Source of the DNA: Eledone cirrhosa
Lineage: Eukaryota
Length of the DNA stretch: 64,000 nucleotides
Direction: 5' to 3'
Assembly: GCA_964016885.1 (NCBI GenBank)
Contig: OZ024747.1
Location: forward strand, 64,914,001-64,978,000
Program-made: the position numbers and the translations under genes
Part shown: positions 23,462-54,562 of the stretch, piece after piece
How the letters are laid out: every line of letters starts with the position of its first letter
Numbering within the stretch: position 1 is the stretch's first letter
Notes under the pieces: generated by a model
Told to the model about the DNA's origin: nothing
Seen by the model: only the letters and a program-made list of their open reading frames with translations
The model's database searches: none

Positions 23462-23532
23462 TGACGTACATGGGAGACGAACCCACATCTGTGGTTATCG
23501 GGACCACTGTGCTACCATTACACCAACACATC
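23462..23532 (-). tRNA. tRNA-like cloverleaf (non-canonical anticodon loop CCCGATA)
   Basis: GATGTGT-TG-GTGTAATGGTAGCAC-A-GTGGT-CCCGATA-ACCAC-AGAT-GTGGG-TTCGTCT-CCCAT-GTACGTC-A. Confidence 0.7.
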
Positions 23533-23638: not shown

Positions 23639-23709
23639 GATGTGTTGGTGTAATGGTAGCACAGCGGTCGCGATAACCACAGATGTGGGTTCGACTCCCA
23701 TGTACGTCA
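23639..23709 (+). tRNA. tRNA-like cloverleaf with A box, B box and downstream T5
   Basis: A box TGGTGTAATGG, B box GGTTCGACTCC, 71-nt cloverleaf, TTTTT about 10 nt downstream; lacks U33 and R37, so probably not a decoding tRNA. Confidence 0.75.
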
Positions 23710-28050: not shown

Positions 28051-31000
28051 GCAATAATAATAATAACGACAACAACAATAATAATATACATGTTCATATA
28101 TATATACACACACACGCACGCACATAAGCATATCTACACACACACACACACACAAACACACGATAGCAACTAACAGTGCTGCGATCGAATGTGGCTTTTT
28201 AGCCCAGCCAATGATCCAAAATGTCTTGCACAGAGTCGGCAACCAAAACATTTACTGGGAATAGTCGGCTGTGGTTGGAGTTCGTGTACTTTTGCATGTC
28301 GCTTGAGTCCTCCTGCTGATTTACATTCTCTACCACATGTTTGGCAAGCATGATGAGTAGCATCTCCAACAGCAGCCTGGTAGTCAACCACTGGTCTTAC
28401 TTTATGACTGCGAAGATGACTTTCGAGTCCAGCTTTGCTTAGGCAGAGTCTCGCACAGACGCTGCATGTCAGAAACACAGGAGGACCCTCGCCGTCTGGA
28501 AGTGCAACAGCAATACCCTTCCTCACGTCCCGCTTTACTTTCTCGTGTGCGATTCGAGATGCCTCAAAGGCAACTTTTCCCTCATATACAGTCTTTCTCC
28601 ATTTATTACGATCAGCAGCAATATTTTCCCATGTATCAGCAGAGATGTTAGCGTCTTTCAGAGAGGCCTTCAAGGAATCCTTATACCTCTTTTTTGGTTT
28701 ATGTGGCGGTCGTTTTCCTTTAACCAACACTCCATAGAAGAGTTGTTTTGGTATTCTAGAATCCTTCATCCTGGCAAGGTGACCACTCCAACGGAGTCGC
28801 TGCTTAAGCACAAGAGCTTCTATACTGTCACACATAGAGCTTTCCAAAATCTCGACATCACTGATGTGGTCCCTCCAGCGAACGCCATGTATCCGTCTGA
28901 GACACATCTGATGGAAACGCTCCAATTGCTTAAGGTGGCGTCGATATGTGACCCAGGTCTCGCAGGCATAAAGAAGACAAGAGAGTACACATGCCCTGTA
29001 CACCTTTACCTTTGTCCTCCTGCATATGTCTCGCCGACCCCAGAGTCGCCTTTCTAGCTTTCCGAAAGCATCACTTGCTTTCCTAATCCTAAGTGAGATT
29101 TCACTGTCAAGGTTGCCGTATCGATTGACAGTGCTTCCCAGGTAGACAAACTGATCAACCACTCCAAGTCGTTTGCCATACACATAGATGTTTGGTTCAG
29201 TGTACTGCCTACCAGGTGCAGGTTGGTACATGACGACGGTTTTCTTGAGACTGACAGTCAAACCCAGGGCAGTGCAAGCGTCAGAAAATACATTCAAAAT
29301 GTGCTGCATATCACTCTCTGTGTGCGCTACAAGATCGCAATCATCTGCATACAAGAGGTCTCTTATGACTGATGTAAATACTTTTGTCTTCGCAGCAAAG
29401 CGCCTGGTGTTAAATATGCTGCCTGAGGTTCGATATCGGATGTAAACACCATGCTCGCAATTCCTGAATGCAATACAGAAAACCATTGCAAAGTATATGG
29501 CAAACAGGGTCGGTGCTGGAATATCCCCCTGTTTCACTCCATTTTTTACTGAGATAGGCTCCGACATGTTACCTCCGACATTAACCCAAGCCTTCATGTC
29601 GTCATGGAAAGACCTAACTAAAGCAAGGAACTTATCAGGGCAACCAAGTTTCTGGAGAACCTTCCATAATGCATCTCTGTTGACAGTATCGAAAGCCTTT
29701 GTCAGATCGACAAAAACCTGATACAGATCCAAGCCCTGTTCAATGCACTTCTCCTGGAGCTGTCTAGCTGAGAAGATCATATCAGTAGTGCCGCGTCCAA
29801 CACGAAAACCAGATTGACTTTCAGGAAGGACACAATCTGCAATGTGTGTCAGCAGACGGTCCAGAAGCACCCTACATAAAACTTTCCCCACGACAGAAAG
29901 CAATGATATACCTCTGTAGTTCCCACAATCATTCCTGTTACCCTTTCCCTTGTACAAGACCACCATTACTGCATCTCTCCAGTCCTCAGGCACGGATTCA
30001 TTAGCCCATATCCTTCCAAACAGAGAGTGAAGACGTTGCAGGAGTCTCTCACCACCATATTGTAGGAGCTCAGCATGTATGCCATCCATACCTGGAGATC
30101 TTCCACTGTTCAGCTTCGAAATAGCCACTGCAACCTCCACAAGTGTCGGAGGCTCTGCGAGAGCTACTTTCACAGGACTTTCCGGAATGAGATTGAGGAA
30201 ATCTTCACTGACGACAGACGGCTGATTCAAAAGATCATCAAAGTGCTCCCGCCACCTTCGTAGAATTCCCTGTGAGTCACGAAGAAGTTCTTTGCCATCC
30301 TTGCTGCGAATCGGTGTCACCAGAGAAGAAGACGGTCCATAAACCTCACGCAAGAGACTGTACAACAGCTTTGTGTTATTGCAATCAGACGCAGTTTGTA
30401 TCTCACCAGCCTTCTCACTCCACCACTGATCCTTCATCTGAGAAAGACTCCGCCTAACACGTGATTTTACATCCTTGAGCTCCTCATGCAACGTATTCCT
30501 CTCCTGTGGTCTTGCCGTCAAGTAGCGTGACAGAGCGCGCCTCTTATCAGCCAACAAGTCATCTATATGCACATCTTTCTCATTAAACCAGTCCTGATGT
30601 TTTCTCTGCACCAATCCCAGAACACGTCTGCCTACATCATAAACCGACTTTTTAAGGGTCGGCCAATCCTCACCAAGATCTGCAGCCTGCATCTCTTCTT
30701 CCAATGTCCTCTTCACATTTTTATCCTTAAGACGAGCAGCATTCAATCTTTTGGGCAGGGTAACACCAGGAGCCCGGATTTTACGTTTGGTGATTAGATT
30801 CACTTTTGCGCGTACCAGGCGGTGGTCCGTCCAGCACTCAGCTCCACGAAGAACACGAACACACCGCACATCCTGTCTGTCACGCATCCTGACTAGGACG
30901 TAGTCCAAAAGATGCCATTCCTTAGATGCAGGATGCATCCATGTGGTCTTGAATTTGTTCTTTTGTTGGAACATGGTGTTGGTAACACACAGATCCAGCT

Positions 31001-31776
31001 CCTCACACATCTGCAGCAAGAGCATACCATTGCTGTTACACTTTCCCACCCCATGCCTTCCGATTACATTCCATGTGTTAAAATCCCTACCCACTCTAGC
31101 ATTAAAGTCACCAAGCACGATGACTTTGTCTGCCTGAGGGATATTTCTTAAAACACCTTTCAAGGCATGGTAAAAGGACAGTTTTTCTTCATCGACAGAA
31201 TTCATAGTTGGAGCATACACACTCACCAGGGTAGCATATCTTCCCTTGTCCAGCGGAACTCTCATGGACATAAGACGCTCACTAATCCCCACTGGGAATT
31301 CTTCCAATTTATTCACCAGTACAGTCTTAACAGCAAATCCTACCCCAGCCTCTCTTCTGGTTCCTTCATCTCTTCCTTTCCAGAAGAATGTATATTCTCC
31401 ACAAAATTCCGTAAGATGACCATCTCCAGCTAACCTCGTCTCAGACAAAGCCACGATGTCAAGATCGTAACGTCGAAGCTCCTTCGCAACAAGAGCGGTC
31501 CTTCGTTCAGGACGCTCCAAAGAATCCCTGTCAAGCAGCGTCCGTACGTTCCAGCAGCCAAGACTAAATGCCCTGTTTGGCTCTATTACAATGGCACGAT
31601 GACGGGCGGGCCCAGGTTGTGATAACTTGGGGCCCCTGCCCTTATTGCCAATGATCTTTTTTGTTCCAGAACCCAAATTGGCAATTATCTCGTTTACATT
31701 GTTCTGGAACATCATTGAATTGGAAAAAAAAAAAAAAAAAAAAGGGGAGAAAAAAAAAAAAAAAAAAGTAATAATA

Positions 31777-31811
<35 letters not shown>

Positions 31812-33128
31812 ACACTATTAATAATTATTAATGCACTCGTGCAATGCCTGTGCGTGACGAATATTTTTAAAGTGAGGAAAGACTGTGCACTGAACCAATC
31901 CCACTCTCTGAGCGACAGTAGCTATAACCCGAAAAGAAGAAAAGATCAACATCATCGGTAACTACTGAGCCGCAGGTTTTATATCGGAGTTAACCCAGTT
32001 TCCTGAGATGCCTTCTCCTAGAAGAATACCCTGACATGGGCTAGGGGTTCTTCACTCCCAGTGGTTTAACTGCGCGATCGGGCATCCAGCCCGATTATTT
32101 CTATGTCCCCGCGCAAAAAAAAAAAAAAAAAAAAAAAAAATTACTTATTGACACTTATACGTACGACATACACACACACGCATACATATGCGTGCACACA
32201 GCAACACTCACACACACAACAAACACACACACACGCTACTCTACTCACTTACACGCACACACACACATATATATATATATATTACCGTCATTACTGATAC
32301 AAGATTACCAGATTATGTCAACTGTTGACTTTCAAGAGTTTGTATAGTTGAAGCCGATCGTATTACAGTCCAGTATTACTATAATTGCTTTACAGCATAG
32401 AGTTATGGCTCTCCACGGAGTCAACAAAAGAGAGTACCAGTGATGCGCTGGCCAGTCGCTGGATCCGTGCCAAAAGCAGAAAAATTATTATTAAAGTTGT
32501 TCTTAAGGCCAGGTCGCTGGTGATGGTGATGGCGACGGCGGTGGCGGTGGTGGTGGTGGTGGCAGTTGATGTTGTTGTTCTGTTGTGTGTGTGTGTGTGT
32601 GTGTGTGTTTTGTTATTTTGAGTTTTTTTTTTTTTTTCCTTTCTTTTTTTTCTCCTTTTTTTTTTTTTCCCTTCCCTTTTCTTTTTTCTTTTCCCTTCCT
32701 TTTTTTATGTTTTGATGCCGCTGTTGTTGTTGTTGTTGTAATTGTTGTAAATGTTCATTTCAGTTCATTCTGAAGCTGTTGTTGCTGTAAACATTAGGGC
32801 CGGTGTTGTTGTTGTTGTAGATGTTGGGGTTGAAATCTGGTTGTTTGACTGAGTGATGTATATACACACATATACATACACACACATATATATATATACA
32901 TTCATCAGAGAGTAGAGAGTTTGACAACAGGTCGATGACTTTAGTCTCGATAGGGTATGGTATGGTAATGACATGTGATGGTGGGGAGAGAGTGTAGACG
33001 TTATTGTGGTGGTGTGGACAGTGAGATGTATCTAGTTCATTTGACCGTTTTCTTCTCTTAGCAAAATTTGAATTCTAGCCATGTTATATTGAGATGTAAG
33101 TAAATGTAAAATATAAATAAGGATTGCT
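27853..33128 (-). mobile_element. Full-length RTE-clade LINE (5' boundary uncertain: at least 32115, possibly 33128)
   Basis: Single intact ORF, 3' stem-loop at 27921-27956 and (TATG)n tail; RTE-type 5' UTR motif TAGCCC...TCTAGGAGAAGG at ~32010-32060; second (TACA)n run at 33129. Confidence 0.8.
28170..31715 (-). CDS. RTE LINE polyprotein: APE endonuclease + reverse transcriptase + 3 C2H2 zinc fingers (1181 aa)
   Basis: WNVRTL, LSETR, VYAPT, GDFNAR, LDYVLV, TDHRLV (APE); YRGISLLS, QSGFR, DLTKAFD, GVKQG, YADD, YLGS (RT); three CxxC-x12-H-x3/4-H motifs. Confidence 0.97.
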   Translation of the reverse strand: MMFQNNVNEIIANLGSGTKKIIGNKGRGPKLSQPGPARHRAIVIEPNRAFSLGCWNVRTLLDRDSLERPERRTALVAKELRRYDLDIVALSETRLAGDGHLTEFCGEYTFFWKGRDEGTRREAGVGFAVKTVLVNKLEEFPVGISERLMSMRVPLDKGRYATLVSVYAPTMNSVDEEKLSFYHALKGVLRNIPQADKVIVLGDFNARVGRDFNTWNVIGRHGVGKCNSNGMLLLQMCEELDLCVTNTMFQQKNKFKTTWMHPASKEWHLLDYVLVRMRDRQDVRCVRVLRGAECWTDHRLVRAKVNLITKRKIRAPGVTLPKRLNAARLKDKNVKRTLEEEMQAADLGEDWPTLKKSVYDVGRRVLGLVQRKHQDWFNEKDVHIDDLLADKRRALSRYLTARPQERNTLHEELKDVKSRVRRSLSQMKDQWWSEKAGEIQTASDCNNTKLLYSLLREVYGPSSSLVTPIRSKDGKELLRDSQGILRRWREHFDDLLNQPSVVSEDFLNLIPESPVKVALAEPPTLVEVAVAISKLNSGRSPGMDGIHAELLQYGGERLLQRLHSLFGRIWANESVPEDWRDAVMVVLYKGKGNRNDCGNYRGISLLSVVGKVLCRVLLDRLLTHIADCVLPESQSGFRVGRGTTDMIFSARQLQEKCIEQGLDLYQVFVDLTKAFDTVNRDALWKVLQKLGCPDKFLALVRSFHDDMKAWVNVGGNMSEPISVKNGVKQGDIPAPTLFAIYFAMVFCIAFRNCEHGVYIRYRTSGSIFNTRRFAAKTKVFTSVIRDLLYADDCDLVAHTESDMQHILNVFSDACTALGLTVSLKKTVVMYQPAPGRQYTEPNIYVYGKRLGVVDQFVYLGSTVNRYGNLDSEISLRIRKASDAFGKLERRLWGRRDICRRTKVKVYRACVLSCLLYACETWVTYRRHLKQLERFHQMCLRRIHGVRWRDHISDVEILESSMCDSIEALVLKQRLRWSGHLARMKDSRIPKQLFYGVLVKGKRPPHKPKKRYKDSLKASLKDANISADTWENIAADRNKWRKTVYEGKVAFEASRIAHEKVKRDVRKGIAVALPDGEGPPVFLTCSVCARLCLSKAGLESHLRSHKVRPVVDYQAAVGDATHHACQTCGRECKSAGGLKRHAKVHELQPQPTIPSKCFGCRLCARHFGSLAGLKSHIRSQHC

Positions 33129-35872: not shown

Positions 35873-35909
35873 CCTGGCAATATTAATATAATATGACCCT
35901 CCCCATGTA

Positions 35910-35953
<44 letters not shown>

Positions 35954-35956
<3 letters not shown>

Positions 35957-36199
35957 CTTTCACCGTATTTCTTTACTAAAGAAATTTTAGCCTGATAATG
36001 GGGTTTAGAACCCTCAGATAAATGGAAAAAGATGAGTATTGACGTATTCCCATGTACGTCAATACTCATCTTTTTCCATTTATCTGAGGGTTCTAAACCC
36101 CATTATCAGGCTAAAATTTCTTTAGTCAAAAAAATACGGTGATTGCTATTCTATTTTCTAATTTCAAACCTGCTCACTGTTTCAAAACATACTTACTTA
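35954..36199. mobile_element. Family C fold-back
   Basis: Arms meet at ATTGACGTA|TTCCCATGTACGTCAAT (~36047). Confidence 0.8.
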
Positions 36200-36385
36200 T
36201 ATATATATATATATATATATAATATGTTGAGAAGGTAACACACCAGAGAGAGATATATAGTGCGTTATCAATAATACAGGGAAAAAACCACCAGTGTATG
36301 GAATCTATAACCTATGAAAGGCATACTATAGACACGATAATTAAAAATATAAATTAAAGCGTAAATAAATACCTCTATAACTATT

Positions 36386-36468
36386 TTACACACGTACAAA
36401 TCCAGAGATATGTTTCGCCAGAGAAATTGTTGAAAAAAATGTTAGTCTCGGTTCATCAGCGTGTGTAA
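36386..36468 (-). ncRNA. Type I hammerhead ribozyme
   Basis: TTACACACG-CTGATGA-ACCGAGA..TCTCTGGC-GAAA-CATATC..GATTTG-TA-CGTGTGTAA; perfect 9-bp stem I. Confidence 0.88.
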
Positions 36469-36924
36469 GGCTATACATCTCAGACAACACTAAGAGAATT
36501 TTACAATTGACTGTCCAGCCACACGTGGGAGAGAGAAGTCACAGCGTGTTTAAGGGCAGTGAACCAGTGGCCTCTGAGAGACGAACTGCTAGAAAGGGCA
36601 GCCCAAAGCCACTCAGAGAAGAGTGCTCAACCAAACAGAGTTAGGAAAGGCTGTTGTTAGGAGCGAAATATCACGATAAATTAACGGAGGCATAGGCCGT
36701 CGTTATTCCCTGTAAATAATGTGCTCAAAGGGGAAGAGATCCTGAGCCCTTTAGAATATAATATGTTGAGAAGGTAACACACCAGAGAGAGATATATAGT
36801 GCGTTATCAATAATACAGGGAAAAAAACACCAGTGTATGGAATCTATAACCTATGAAAGGCATACTATAGACACGATAATTAAAAATATAAATTAAAGCG
36901 TAAATAAATACCTCTATAACTATA

Positions 36925-37007
36925 TTACACACGTACAAATCCAGAGATATGTTTCGCCAGAGAAATTGTTGAAAGAAATGTTAGTCTCGGTTCATCAGCG
37001 TGTGTAA
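36925..37007 (-). ncRNA. Type I hammerhead ribozyme (tandem copy)
   Basis: Same motif 539 bp from the first. Confidence 0.88.
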
Positions 37008-37205
37008 GGCTATCTAACAACAGCCTTTCCTATCTCTGTTTGGTTGAGCACTCTTCTCTGAGTGGCTTTGGGCTGCCCTTTCTAGCAGTTCGTCTCTCAG
37101 AGGCCACTGGTTCACTGCCCTTAAACACGCTGTGACTTCTCTCTCCCACGTGTGGCTGGACAGTCAATTGTAAAATTCTCTTAGTGTCGTCTGAGATGTA
37201 TAGCC

Positions 37206-37291
37206 TTACACACGCTGATGAACCGAGACTAACATTTCTTTCAACAATTTCTCTGGCGAAACATATCTCTGGATTTGTACGTGGTGTGTAA
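37206..37291 (+). ncRNA. Type I hammerhead ribozyme (inverted copy)
   Basis: Same motif with a 3-nt GTG duplication in the 3' strand of stem I. Confidence 0.85.
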
Positions 37292-37559
37292 TATAGTTAT
37301 AGAGGTATTTATTTACGCTTTAATTTATATTTTTAATTATCGTGTCTATAGTATGCCTTTCATAGGTTATAGATTCCATACACTGGTGGTTTTTTCCCTG
37401 TATTATTGATAACGCACTATATATCTCTCTCTGGTGTGTTACCTTCTCAACATATTATATTCTAAAGGGCTCAGGATCTCTTCCCCTTTGAGCACATTAT
37501 TTACAGGGAATAACGACGGCCTATGCCTCCGTTAATTTATCGTGGTATATATATATATA

Positions 37560-38158
37560 TAAGTATGTACACGTACATACATATATGTATACAGACGTAC
37601 AGTAGTATGTATATATATATACATACATGCACACATATTATAATGCTCGGTGTGTTTGTAAACAAACAACCCGTATTAAGCCGTAGTGTCTAGCAACCAT
37701 CGTTGCTCGTTTGTTCAACACTGACAAAGGAACGCTGGACTAGTTTCAAGCTTATTAGCTATCGTCAGCAACGTATACCTTCCTGTCAGATTGTTGAACG
37801 TATATACTTACCTTTATGCATATTAACGGCTGAGTAGCCTAATTTGCTTATCAAGTGGGTTAATCGGCCGGGTGCACCGAAAACGATAAACGGAAAAAAT
37901 GAAACGAAATTTCATTTCCCACTCTTAGTACGGCTGTTACTTAAATATAAGTATGTACACGTACATACATATATGTATACAGACGTACAGTAGTATGTAT
38001 ATATATATACATACATGCACACATATATATATGTACGTATGGATTCACCGAACATTTATTATAATGCTCGGTGTGTTTGTAAACAAACATCCCGTATTAA
38101 GCCGTAGTGTCCAGCAACCATCGTTGCTGGTTTGTTCAACACTGACAAAGGAACGGTG
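37560..38158 (-). mobile_element. Family B, ~1.5 tandem units
   Basis: Reverse complement of the 15440-15968 unit, permuted; partial copies also at 4490-4537 and 56325-56470. Confidence 0.85.
37732..37774 (-). ncRNA. Minimal type I hammerhead ribozyme (GUC triplet)
   Basis: ACGTTG-CTGACGA-TAGCTAATAAGCTT-GAAA-CTAG-TC-CAGCGT. Confidence 0.88.
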
Positions 38159-53051: not shown

Positions 53052-54562
53052 GATATATATGCATATATATATGTATGTATGTATGTATGTGTGTGTGTGA
53101 ATGTGTGAGGATGCAGGAGTTAAATTGTTATGTATATATATATATATATATATTTCTGTTGAGCTCTGCTGACGATTGAAATCCAACCGTGGCCATCTCC
53201 ACTGAAAGTTTTCATGAAATAGTATTTTAAGACTATACAGAGCATTTGATGTTATTCCAAATTGAAGGATAAGTGTTTTAAACTTTATTTTATCATGAGT
53301 TAAAGGTCTATTGATTTTTCCCTGGATTTCACTAAATTCTGTGGATGAATTTGTATCCTGATTCTCTTTTGAGATGAGTTTGAATTATTTTTCCTAAATC
53401 TTACGTGAACTACTTTTCCCATCTTGACGTTATAGTCGCATACGTTATATGTTATAGAATAACATGACGTTATATGTTATAGAATACTATTAGCTTCTCG
53501 CTACAACAATCTCTATACCTCTCATTTATAAATATATATATATATATCCACGTCATTGCATAACAACACCTACGATTGTATGAGCGTCTGATAAAGTCAT
53601 ATACATAACCATGTAACAGAAATATATATCATGCAATAAAGCAACTATGGTGAAGTCTTATCTACATTTAATTCGAAACATATATACATATATCGTTCTT
53701 TATTCAACAATATCTACTCATTATTTTTTACATTCTAATTGGTTAATTGTTCATTCTGTCACATAACTTCAGTCCAAGAATATAGCGTTGCAAGTAACCT
53801 TGGAATACTCAACCGCTTGAGTAGAAATTTAGTTGGCTGAACACCTGAATGCTTATTTTTCGGGATTGACCGAGAATCCCCTCATAAATGCTAACATATA
53901 TTTTTAATTGTATATTTCATTTCATTTTATTATATCTGCGAAGTTATACAAGAGGCCTGATATATCAACTTAGATATATATCAACCTAGATATATACAAA
54001 GCTTTAGTTTCTTCCGTTTGCATGCATATTTTACCACAACACCTAAAAAGAAAAAATGCACTTCAGCAAACCGTTATATTAGACTGCCAGCTGTGTCATT
54101 TACTTTACTTATATAATATATAATCAATCACGCGATCCCTCGCTAAGCAAAATTTCCCCTAAAAATATTTTAATGAGTTCTCATAATACTTTCTTTTATG
54201 TCATAAGTGTATCGTATCTACTTTGGCAACTTTCCATTTACTAATGATATCGTAGCTATGCATATCAGATCATCTTCTCATCAAAGGAAATAGAAATCAG
54301 GATCTTTTTTTCTGCTTTTCAACAGCTAAAGACAAGCTTTGTATGCAGTCAGCTCTTTATGTTCATGAATTAGCTATATCCTAAAGATCAGAATCTTTAA
54401 AATATTTTAAACATTTTTCACTGGTCGTGAAAAGAAATCATCATCATCCTCATCATCATCATATTATTATTATTATTTTTATTATTACCATTATTGTTAT
54501 TATTATTATTGTTATTATTATTATTATCATTATTATTATTATCATCATTATTATCATCATTA

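Follow-up and report, generated by a model that had tools for sequence, protein, structure and literature searches.

A hammerhead-bearing repeat family of Eledone cirrhosa whose paired start sites point to Penelope-type double priming

A 539-nt non-coding repeat, here called U and marked by a type I hammerhead motif, is dispersed through the 3.0-Gb genome of Eledone cirrhosa, and we conclude that the U family is very probably a non-autonomous Penelope-like element, or PLE (a non-LTR retrozyme), inserted by PLE-type double priming. This assignment is the most likely one because the arms of inverted U insertions mostly start as a pair, one at each of two fixed sites, A and B, and this A+B pairing is the 'tail' signature of PLEs. 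The locus dissected below lies in a (TA)n-rich window, by which we mean the whole 64,000-nt stretch analysed (positions 64,914,001-64,978,000 of contig OZ024747.1), and is by itself an ordinary member of the family.

Structure of the window locus

The insertion consists of two inverted arms set between (TA)n tracts (Table 1). Unit positions are numbered from u1 = 36222, with u439 and u447 equivalent to 36660 and 36668, and 36222-36760 serves as the reference unit. The B arm, whose RNA sense is the minus strand, contains the direct repeat described in an earlier note on this DNA, which we confirm: 36217-36474 and 36756-37013 are spaced by 539 nt and differ by 3 mismatches in 258 nt. The A arm, with its RNA sense on the plus strand, is 535 nt long, 532 nt of it templated (0.99 unit), and is 98.4-98.9% identical to the unit apart from one 3-nt insertion. 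This inverted arm had been placed at 37013-37545, running from the equivalent of 36660 to that of ~36672; its structure and its first end stand, whereas its limits shift to 37014-37548 and its other end to the equivalent of 36668. The arm does cross the supposed unit junction (36221/36760), but this point is merely start site B and not a template end. The longest stop-free frame across the insertion is 88 aa, in agreement with the claim that it lacks an ORF. With about 0.5% change per copy estimated since insertion, the locus is probably young.

Table 1. Features of the U insertion, in window positions
Feature	Position	Strand	Remarks
Left (TA)n target tract	36198..36221	.	Seen in the sequence; final bases overlap start site B
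B arm, tail-less	36217..37013	-	u535 to u539, u1-539, u1-253; 797 nt = 1.48 units
Full 539-nt unit (reference U)	36222..36760	-	
Type I hammerhead motif, copy 1	36386..36468	-	Predicted cut after 36395; 9-bp stem I
Predicted 539-nt monomer from double cleavage	36395..36933	-	Arithmetic from predicted cuts 36934 and 36395
Predicted structured domain, u461-u62	36682..36822	-	Surrounds starts A and B
Type I hammerhead motif, copy 2	36925..37007	-	Predicted cut after 36934; 9-bp stem I
Inversion junction	37013..37014	.	Meeting of two cDNA ends, u253 / u439; blunt
A arm, tailed	37014..37548	+	u439 to u1, u539 to u447
Hammerhead motif, copy 3	37206..37291	+	Stem I broken after 4 bp by private 3-nt insertion
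88-nt 'tail'	37461..37548	+	From start B (u535) to start A (u447); only at right end
Right (TA)n target tract	37546..37561	.	Seen in the sequence; overlaps start site A

The predicted domain around the two starts is likely the RT-binding region, and arms also tend to end within it. It folds better than shuffled sequences (z=-3.3, compared with z=-3.1 for the whole circle), with B placed in a predicted hairpin loop, and 9 of 12 changes between young and old copies at its paired positions keep the pairing; RNAalifold recovered two helices only from 120 domain copies.

That the structure arose as an assembly artefact (a fold-back read) or by DNA-level rearrangement of a satellite is hardly credible. 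None of the records listed from four independent sequencing runs bridges the junction 37013/37014, although ordinary unit-to-unit continuity is present in the same runs; yet the arms do not form a mirror palindrome, every copy has private differences, and the A+B rule described below is obeyed by 86 further insertions spread over many contigs. In the sequencing runs the U family was abundant in X1 (1660 records) and X14 (2283 reads), with 4 contigs each in X4 and X6. Runs X4 and X6 are labelled as organisms other than that of X1, and their few, low-depth contigs hardly differ from the unit (at 2 of 184 nt in X4); these may represent relatives, transfer or contamination.

Paired start sites across the U family

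Genome-wide searches for exact patterns returned 778 matches to a 25-mer of the tail, 56 to a 23-mer of the youngest ribozyme and 513 to older ribozymes. Reversed-pattern controls gave 0 matches, against 778 and 56, and the family is therefore far above chance. A whole-unit search yielded 2,759 candidates, 40 of which were scored, and a phage collection contained no match to U. The family is multi-copy and low in GC, with tandem runs of up to 4.4 units. Mapping gave 177 distinct insertions, a set that excludes loci fetched by PLE proteins (L061-L134) and insertions less than 60 nt from a locus edge.

Arms begin, on the RNA 3' side, at two fixed sites: A at u447, and B at u531-u3, most commonly u535 (40 of 75), 88 nt from A. 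TA-rich DNA adjoins 217 of 257 A or B starts. Among the 104 inverted insertions, 87 combine A with B and 17 have one or both ends elsewhere, and the AA, BB and head-out classes are each empty among the 177; the 73 insertions of a single orientation start at A (56), B (12) or another position (5). If each arm chose its site independently with equal probability, the chance of finding no AA in 87 would be ~5e-16, BB being ignored in this figure; the tail pattern is biased, missing short BB insertions and enriching for AA, while the whole-unit and ribozyme searches could return BB. Insertions picked by position only gave the same picture (44 A+B and no AA or BB, n=78), as did an older subfamily, ~80% identical, in which 13 of 16 inverted insertions are A+B. 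The earlier note had traced the locus to reverse transcription of a circular or tandem RNA, with priming on either side of a broken (TA)n tract. An RNA template, priming on both sides of the break and a template that is circular or longer than one unit are all retained here; what that account missed are the fixed start sites, which identify Penelope-type machinery.

Nearly every A+B insertion has its own junction, and of 39 junctions, 13 share 1-5 nt between the arms, 4 are blunt and 22 have intervening letters. In 11 of 64 insertions (e.g. L035, L170, L174 and L209) the two arms end within 10 nt of one another, compared with 5.1 after shuffling (p=0.008), which may mean that both RTs reached one break in one RNA. 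Simple snap-back copying was rejected as a general rule because B arms are often longer than A arms, and same-strand pairs spaced 3.8-6.3 kb apart were rejected as LTR pairs, being independent insertions or duplications. Nor does the ~0.98 circuit covered by the window's A arm by itself mark a footprint of the template, as had been proposed: of 62 A arms reaching at least 500 nt, 3 stop at 520-539 and 24 at 560-640, leaving no hard stop after one circuit.

A coding PLE follows the same rule

As a positive control we used a coding PLE family of the same genome, F1, whose end has 2,216 exact matches. F1 has a GIY-YIG domain at 22.8 bits (Pfam cut-off 22.6), a weak RVT_1 match and its own hammerhead motif, and its two ends lie 58 nt apart. 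A+B pairing was found in 15 of 18 position-picked inverted F1 insertions and, for all loci together, in 24 of 29, with no AA or BB. Because U has fixed starts and A+B pairing as coding F1 does, it inserts like a PLE.

Mobilisation of the unit by a LINE through L1-style twin priming, for example by the APE-RT element at 28170-31814, is extremely unlikely. Twin priming also yields inversions with 5' truncation, and intact LINE ORFs are present, but its second site is variable, lying where the first cDNA ends, whereas both start sites of U are fixed and its arms overlap by hundreds of nucleotides. Furthermore, U insertions have no poly(A) or 3' tandem tail, and the coding PLE obeys the same A+B rule.

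We also consider it very unlikely, and largely refuted, that the unit is the pseudo-LTR of a coding PLE and that the U loci are its 5'-truncated ends. The anatomy of U is that of pLTRs, and one locus (L002/L121) joins the RNA-5' side of the unit to a PLE-like ORF; against this, the arms continue into the next unit, for up to 4.4 units, and not into an ORF, and among 74 PLE-protein loci a U-like terminal repeat was found only at two seed loci and as one 63-nt fragment. The related alternative raised in the earlier note, fixed-end LTRs of a longer coding element, holds as far as the ends, which are fixed; between the four widely spaced U pairs that were fetched there is no coding body or PLE ORF.

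L002/L121 (G000:C2:320311290-320312700) is the lone chimeric junction, and U was otherwise not seen flanking an RT/GIY-YIG ORF. Its ORF, fused to the RNA-5' side of a U arm, is truncated at the CxC motif ahead of the endonuclease, and the remainder is absent within 9.9 kb; this single case in 177 is possibly a template-switch chimera.

PLEs with an endonuclease occur in the genome, with 150 GIY-YIG matches out of 10,595 candidates and one 938-aa frame that combines RT and GIY-YIG. The start domain of U has no significant similarity to four PLE 3' ends (p=0.40-1.0); these ends and the 74 loci, from a partner search over GIY-YIG, F1 and L002-type PLE loci, sample a small part of the PLE families of the genome. 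Site B at first seemed to resemble the end of F1, but the resemblance did not survive a shuffle test (p=0.40), and AT-rich matches of u107-152 and of a 20-mer, u366-385, to PLE loci were discarded as noise.

The hammerhead motif

A motif scan located three CUGAUGA...GAAA...GUA motifs, at 36459(-), 36998(-) and 37215(+). Stem I is the open helix, as in type I, and no unique core lies between the units. The call is based on the motif scan and on conservation within the family; the Rfam models do not score it, giving no hammerhead match at this locus either at the gathering cut-off or at E<=10. An intact hammerhead with a long stem I had been claimed for all three copies, which is correct for copies 1 and 2 and incorrect for copy 3, in which the interrupting 3-nt insertion is a singleton in the family. 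Copies 1 and 2 are consecutive complete motifs set 539 nt apart, and the earlier arithmetic for the monomer is right, since precisely that distance separates the cuts predicted to fall after 36934 and after 36395.

The hammerhead core is nearly invariant in ~120-130 aligned family copies and is retained in the older subfamily, where stem III is better paired. Because the core is invariant across subfamilies ~20% apart, cleavage appears to have mattered. Position 11.1, at the base of stem II, is C in all three window copies, creating an A.C mismatch; across the family it is U (A-U) in 79 of 126 copies and C in 47. Nearest-neighbour folding of the transcript that the earlier note had proposed for a cleavage assay gave stem II P<=0.10 and stem III P<=0.30, and opening the hammerhead core costs a predicted 2-4 kcal/mol, so that the active fold is not favoured in silico. 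In a transcript through the whole insertion, the copy-1 ribozyme is predicted to pair into the inverted-repeat duplex (P=1.00).

These predictions, together with sequence variants, lend no support to the suggestion that the locus is itself a source element: the active fold is disfavoured in the proposed transcript, the whole-insertion transcript would pair copy 1 with the inverted arm, and the u103 variant of the locus was found in no other insertion of the youngest subfamily. This variant has 12 exact matches in the genome, 3 at the window locus and 9 elsewhere; the 7 outside matches that were fetched fall in 6 insertions that are just 87-94% identical, in a search that is blind to daughters truncated before u103.

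Template of reverse transcription

Counted over the first 115 insertions, the predicted cleavage site lies within 53 of the 96 A arms and within 56 of the 79 B arms; 13 arms run through it twice. There is no pile-up at the site, with 2 of 175 arms stopping at u170-180, and no recurrent indel there. Crossing without pile-up or scars indicates a continuous template, either a ligated circle or an uncleaved multimer, and rejects end-to-end jumping on cleaved linear monomers.

Copies within one insertion differ by 1.2-1.3%, compared with 2.9% between insertions. Among 131 young insertions, variants private to one insertion recur from lap to lap within an arm in 4 of 18 cases (7 sites; expected 0.15) and are common to opposite arms in 6 of 24 (8 sites; expected 0.07). 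Allowing one other carrier raised these counts to 5/18 and 8/24, compared with 3/116 for nearest copies elsewhere, and a looser alignment gave 3/23 and 6/40. Examples include private variants in all three copies of L013, u166 in all four of L030, and u103T in all three window copies. The majority of multi-lap insertions have no shared private variant (14 of 18, or 20 of 23 with the looser alignment). The shared variants favour a single template behind the two arms and every lap, but they may also stem from gene conversion at a later time than the insertion. In L030 the four laps carry two haplotypes in the order X-Y-Y-X, and this insertion is therefore not the product of a single monomer circle.

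The same double priming at A and B could have copied a linear multimeric RNA, transcribed from a tandem locus and left uncleaved. Re-insertion in tandem or local duplication would then renew the multimers, and gene conversion would keep them alike. We regard this as a serious possibility, if one that falls short of an even chance. The order of laps in L030 and the disfavoured ribozyme fold fit such a template, scar-free crossing of the cut site is expected equally from it, and unprocessed RNA serves as the predominant substrate of the PLE protein PAc in vitro, as described in the available text of PMC11167929. In addition, an unbroken template of ~885 nt is enough for the window locus, and the genome contains arms that exceed this length. 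On the other hand, successive laps share private variants (as in L013, at u166 of L030 and at u103 of the window), the hammerhead core is unchanged across the diverged subfamilies, and arms would presumably shorten each cycle under linear-only inheritance. The combination that we prefer, PLE double priming at A and B on a circular monomer, is in our judgement evenly balanced as a joint reading.

Arms on their second lap tended to stop near the start domain. Of A arms on lap 2, 14 of 17 ended within u476-u116, whereas on lap 1 this was so for 36 of 73 (post hoc comparison in the position-picked set, p=0.016); the corresponding figures for B arms, 7/14 and 16/53, do not differ significantly (p=0.21).

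Neighbouring repeats

Immediately left of the insertion, 35956-36198 is a short inverted repeat with 79-nt arms between (TA)n tracts, its right arm alone being longer by ~50 nt. It has the look of a further PLE-type insertion with a single tail, one end of which supplied the tract that U entered, and relatives of ~81-94% identity occur in L142, L144 and L258. An end motif at 35888-35913 (+), before (TA)n, is close to start B of F1 and also terminates several other repeats. The right flank contains a duplicated ~190-nt repeat (37554-37737 and 37942-38158).

Elsewhere in the window, a LINE that looks intact occupies 28170-31814 (-); its 1,214-aa frame has no interruption and contains an endonuclease domain, an RT domain (E 1.7e-30) and a C2H2 domain. 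Four more type I hammerhead-like motifs belong to other families, at 53169(+), 56094(-), 25425(-) and 16223(-), and two of them recur in L129. Near-identical tRNA-like matches at 23462-23532(-) and 23639-23709(+), inverted and 106 nt apart, are perhaps SINE heads. Outside the window, a hammerhead repeat distinct from U, with a period of 459 nt, lies downstream of a PLE ORF (L123:5700-6230) and is probably a further retrozyme family.

Discussion

We propose that U is copied by a borrowed Penelope RT/GIY-YIG protein, the RNA template being probably circular. By analogy with known retrozymes, a multimer locus would be transcribed, its hammerheads would release the 539-nt monomer, and a host ligase would close it into a circle. 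The PLE protein would then bind the predicted domain u461-u62 and introduce a nick into each strand of a (TA)n tract. One nick would prime at A (u447) and the other at B (u535), 88 nt on along the RNA; the A+B pairing is observed, and shared private variants suggest that both primings use the same RNA molecule. Each RT passes the ribozyme site and sometimes a full unit, and often appears to stall on re-entering the start domain, an observation of modest significance. Finally, the two cDNA ends would be joined, by whatever chemistry, into the tail-out inverted arms with a single tail that are seen in the genome. A more specific model, in which a dimer of the PLE protein primes the two nicked strands on one circular retrozyme RNA with its subunits at A and B, each travelling around the circle with strand displacement until it stalls at the occupied start domain, is offered tentatively and would need to overcome some doubt on our part.

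Several features of this scheme have precedents among PLEs. A PLE protein cuts and extends both strands at AT-rich DNA, and RT starts at two internal sites, the distance between them being the tail seen in genomes (PMC11167929). PLE insertions can comprise a pair of direct pLTRs and a single inverted one with a 30-40-bp tail, often at a single end, show a (TA)n bias and include non-autonomous head-to-tail derivatives (PMC3846280; PMC8557442). Like U, the elements PAc/Poseidon (PMC11167929), Adineta Pen2a/Pen3a (PMC3846280) and Naiad/Chlamys (PMC8557442) have, in the available text, two internal starts that leave a tail on a single end, copies arranged both in tandem and inverted, AT-rich or (TA)n targets and a hammerhead upstream of the starts. 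U differs from them in having no ORF, a tail of 88 nt instead of 30-40 and whole-unit head-to-tail runs. It also pairs its sites strictly, whereas the start sites of PAc are alike on both strands in vitro, where hammerhead cleavage is dispensable (PMC11167929). The ribozyme of PAc depends on protein. Non-autonomous Chlamys elements such as MRC1 are likewise non-coding PLE dependants with multicopy head-to-tail insertions; in contrast to U, for which no homology to a partner was found among the PLE loci sampled, they have 3' sequence in common with an autonomous family, and their clade is described as lacking canonical hammerheads, whereas U carries the motif (PMC8557442).

Metazoan non-LTR retrozymes resemble U in their non-coding tandem units with a type I hammerhead (PMC7229834; PMC4209133; bioRxiv 10.64898/2026.07.22.740005), and also in low GC, dispersal as monomers to multimers and co-occurrence with PLEs (PMC7229834; bioRxiv 10.64898/2026.07.22.740005). 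The latter two sources propose a circRNA template yielding tandem cDNA, and their available text does not describe RT starting at fixed points, arms in inverted orientation or a preference for (TA)n targets. They demonstrate expression, cleavage and circles, which for U are proposed, and report PLE pLTR homology for 24 of 57 Xenopus retrozyme families, whereas none was found for U in the PLE loci sampled. The 539-nt unit compares with a typical 150-450 bp and with the range of 51-972 in the bioRxiv study (10.64898/2026.07.22.740005), in which 1 of 9 predicted Xenopus dimers was cleaved. PLEs have been proposed to mobilise animal retrozymes on the grounds that the two occur together and are related in sequence, and the same study in its available text leaves the mechanism of mobilisation open. 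Plant LTR retrozymes share with U the ribozyme-flanked monomer and have a circRNA intermediate; they differ in their type III hammerhead, LTR/PBS/PPT architecture, which U lacks, and use of Gypsy machinery (bioRxiv 10.64898/2026.07.22.740005; PMC7229834).

The class to which U belongs is thus known and U is a new member of it; the useful part is the strict, quantified A+B rule with its exact start sites. A literature search covering the main texts of mostly open papers returned no quantified one-tail rule and no report of the U family. Here the PLE signature is in the anatomy of the insertions themselves, counted in 177 of them with a coding PLE as control. The exact starts and the 539-nt ORF-free template make two questions testable, namely whether a PLE RT copies a circle and whether its start sites are used one per strand. 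If the dimer-on-circle model is true, the U family would preserve in a genome, for the first time, a record of reverse transcription on an animal ribozyme circle. The A+B rule, which coding F1 shares, would then describe an asymmetric step general to the integration of PLEs, unseen in the published in vitro system.
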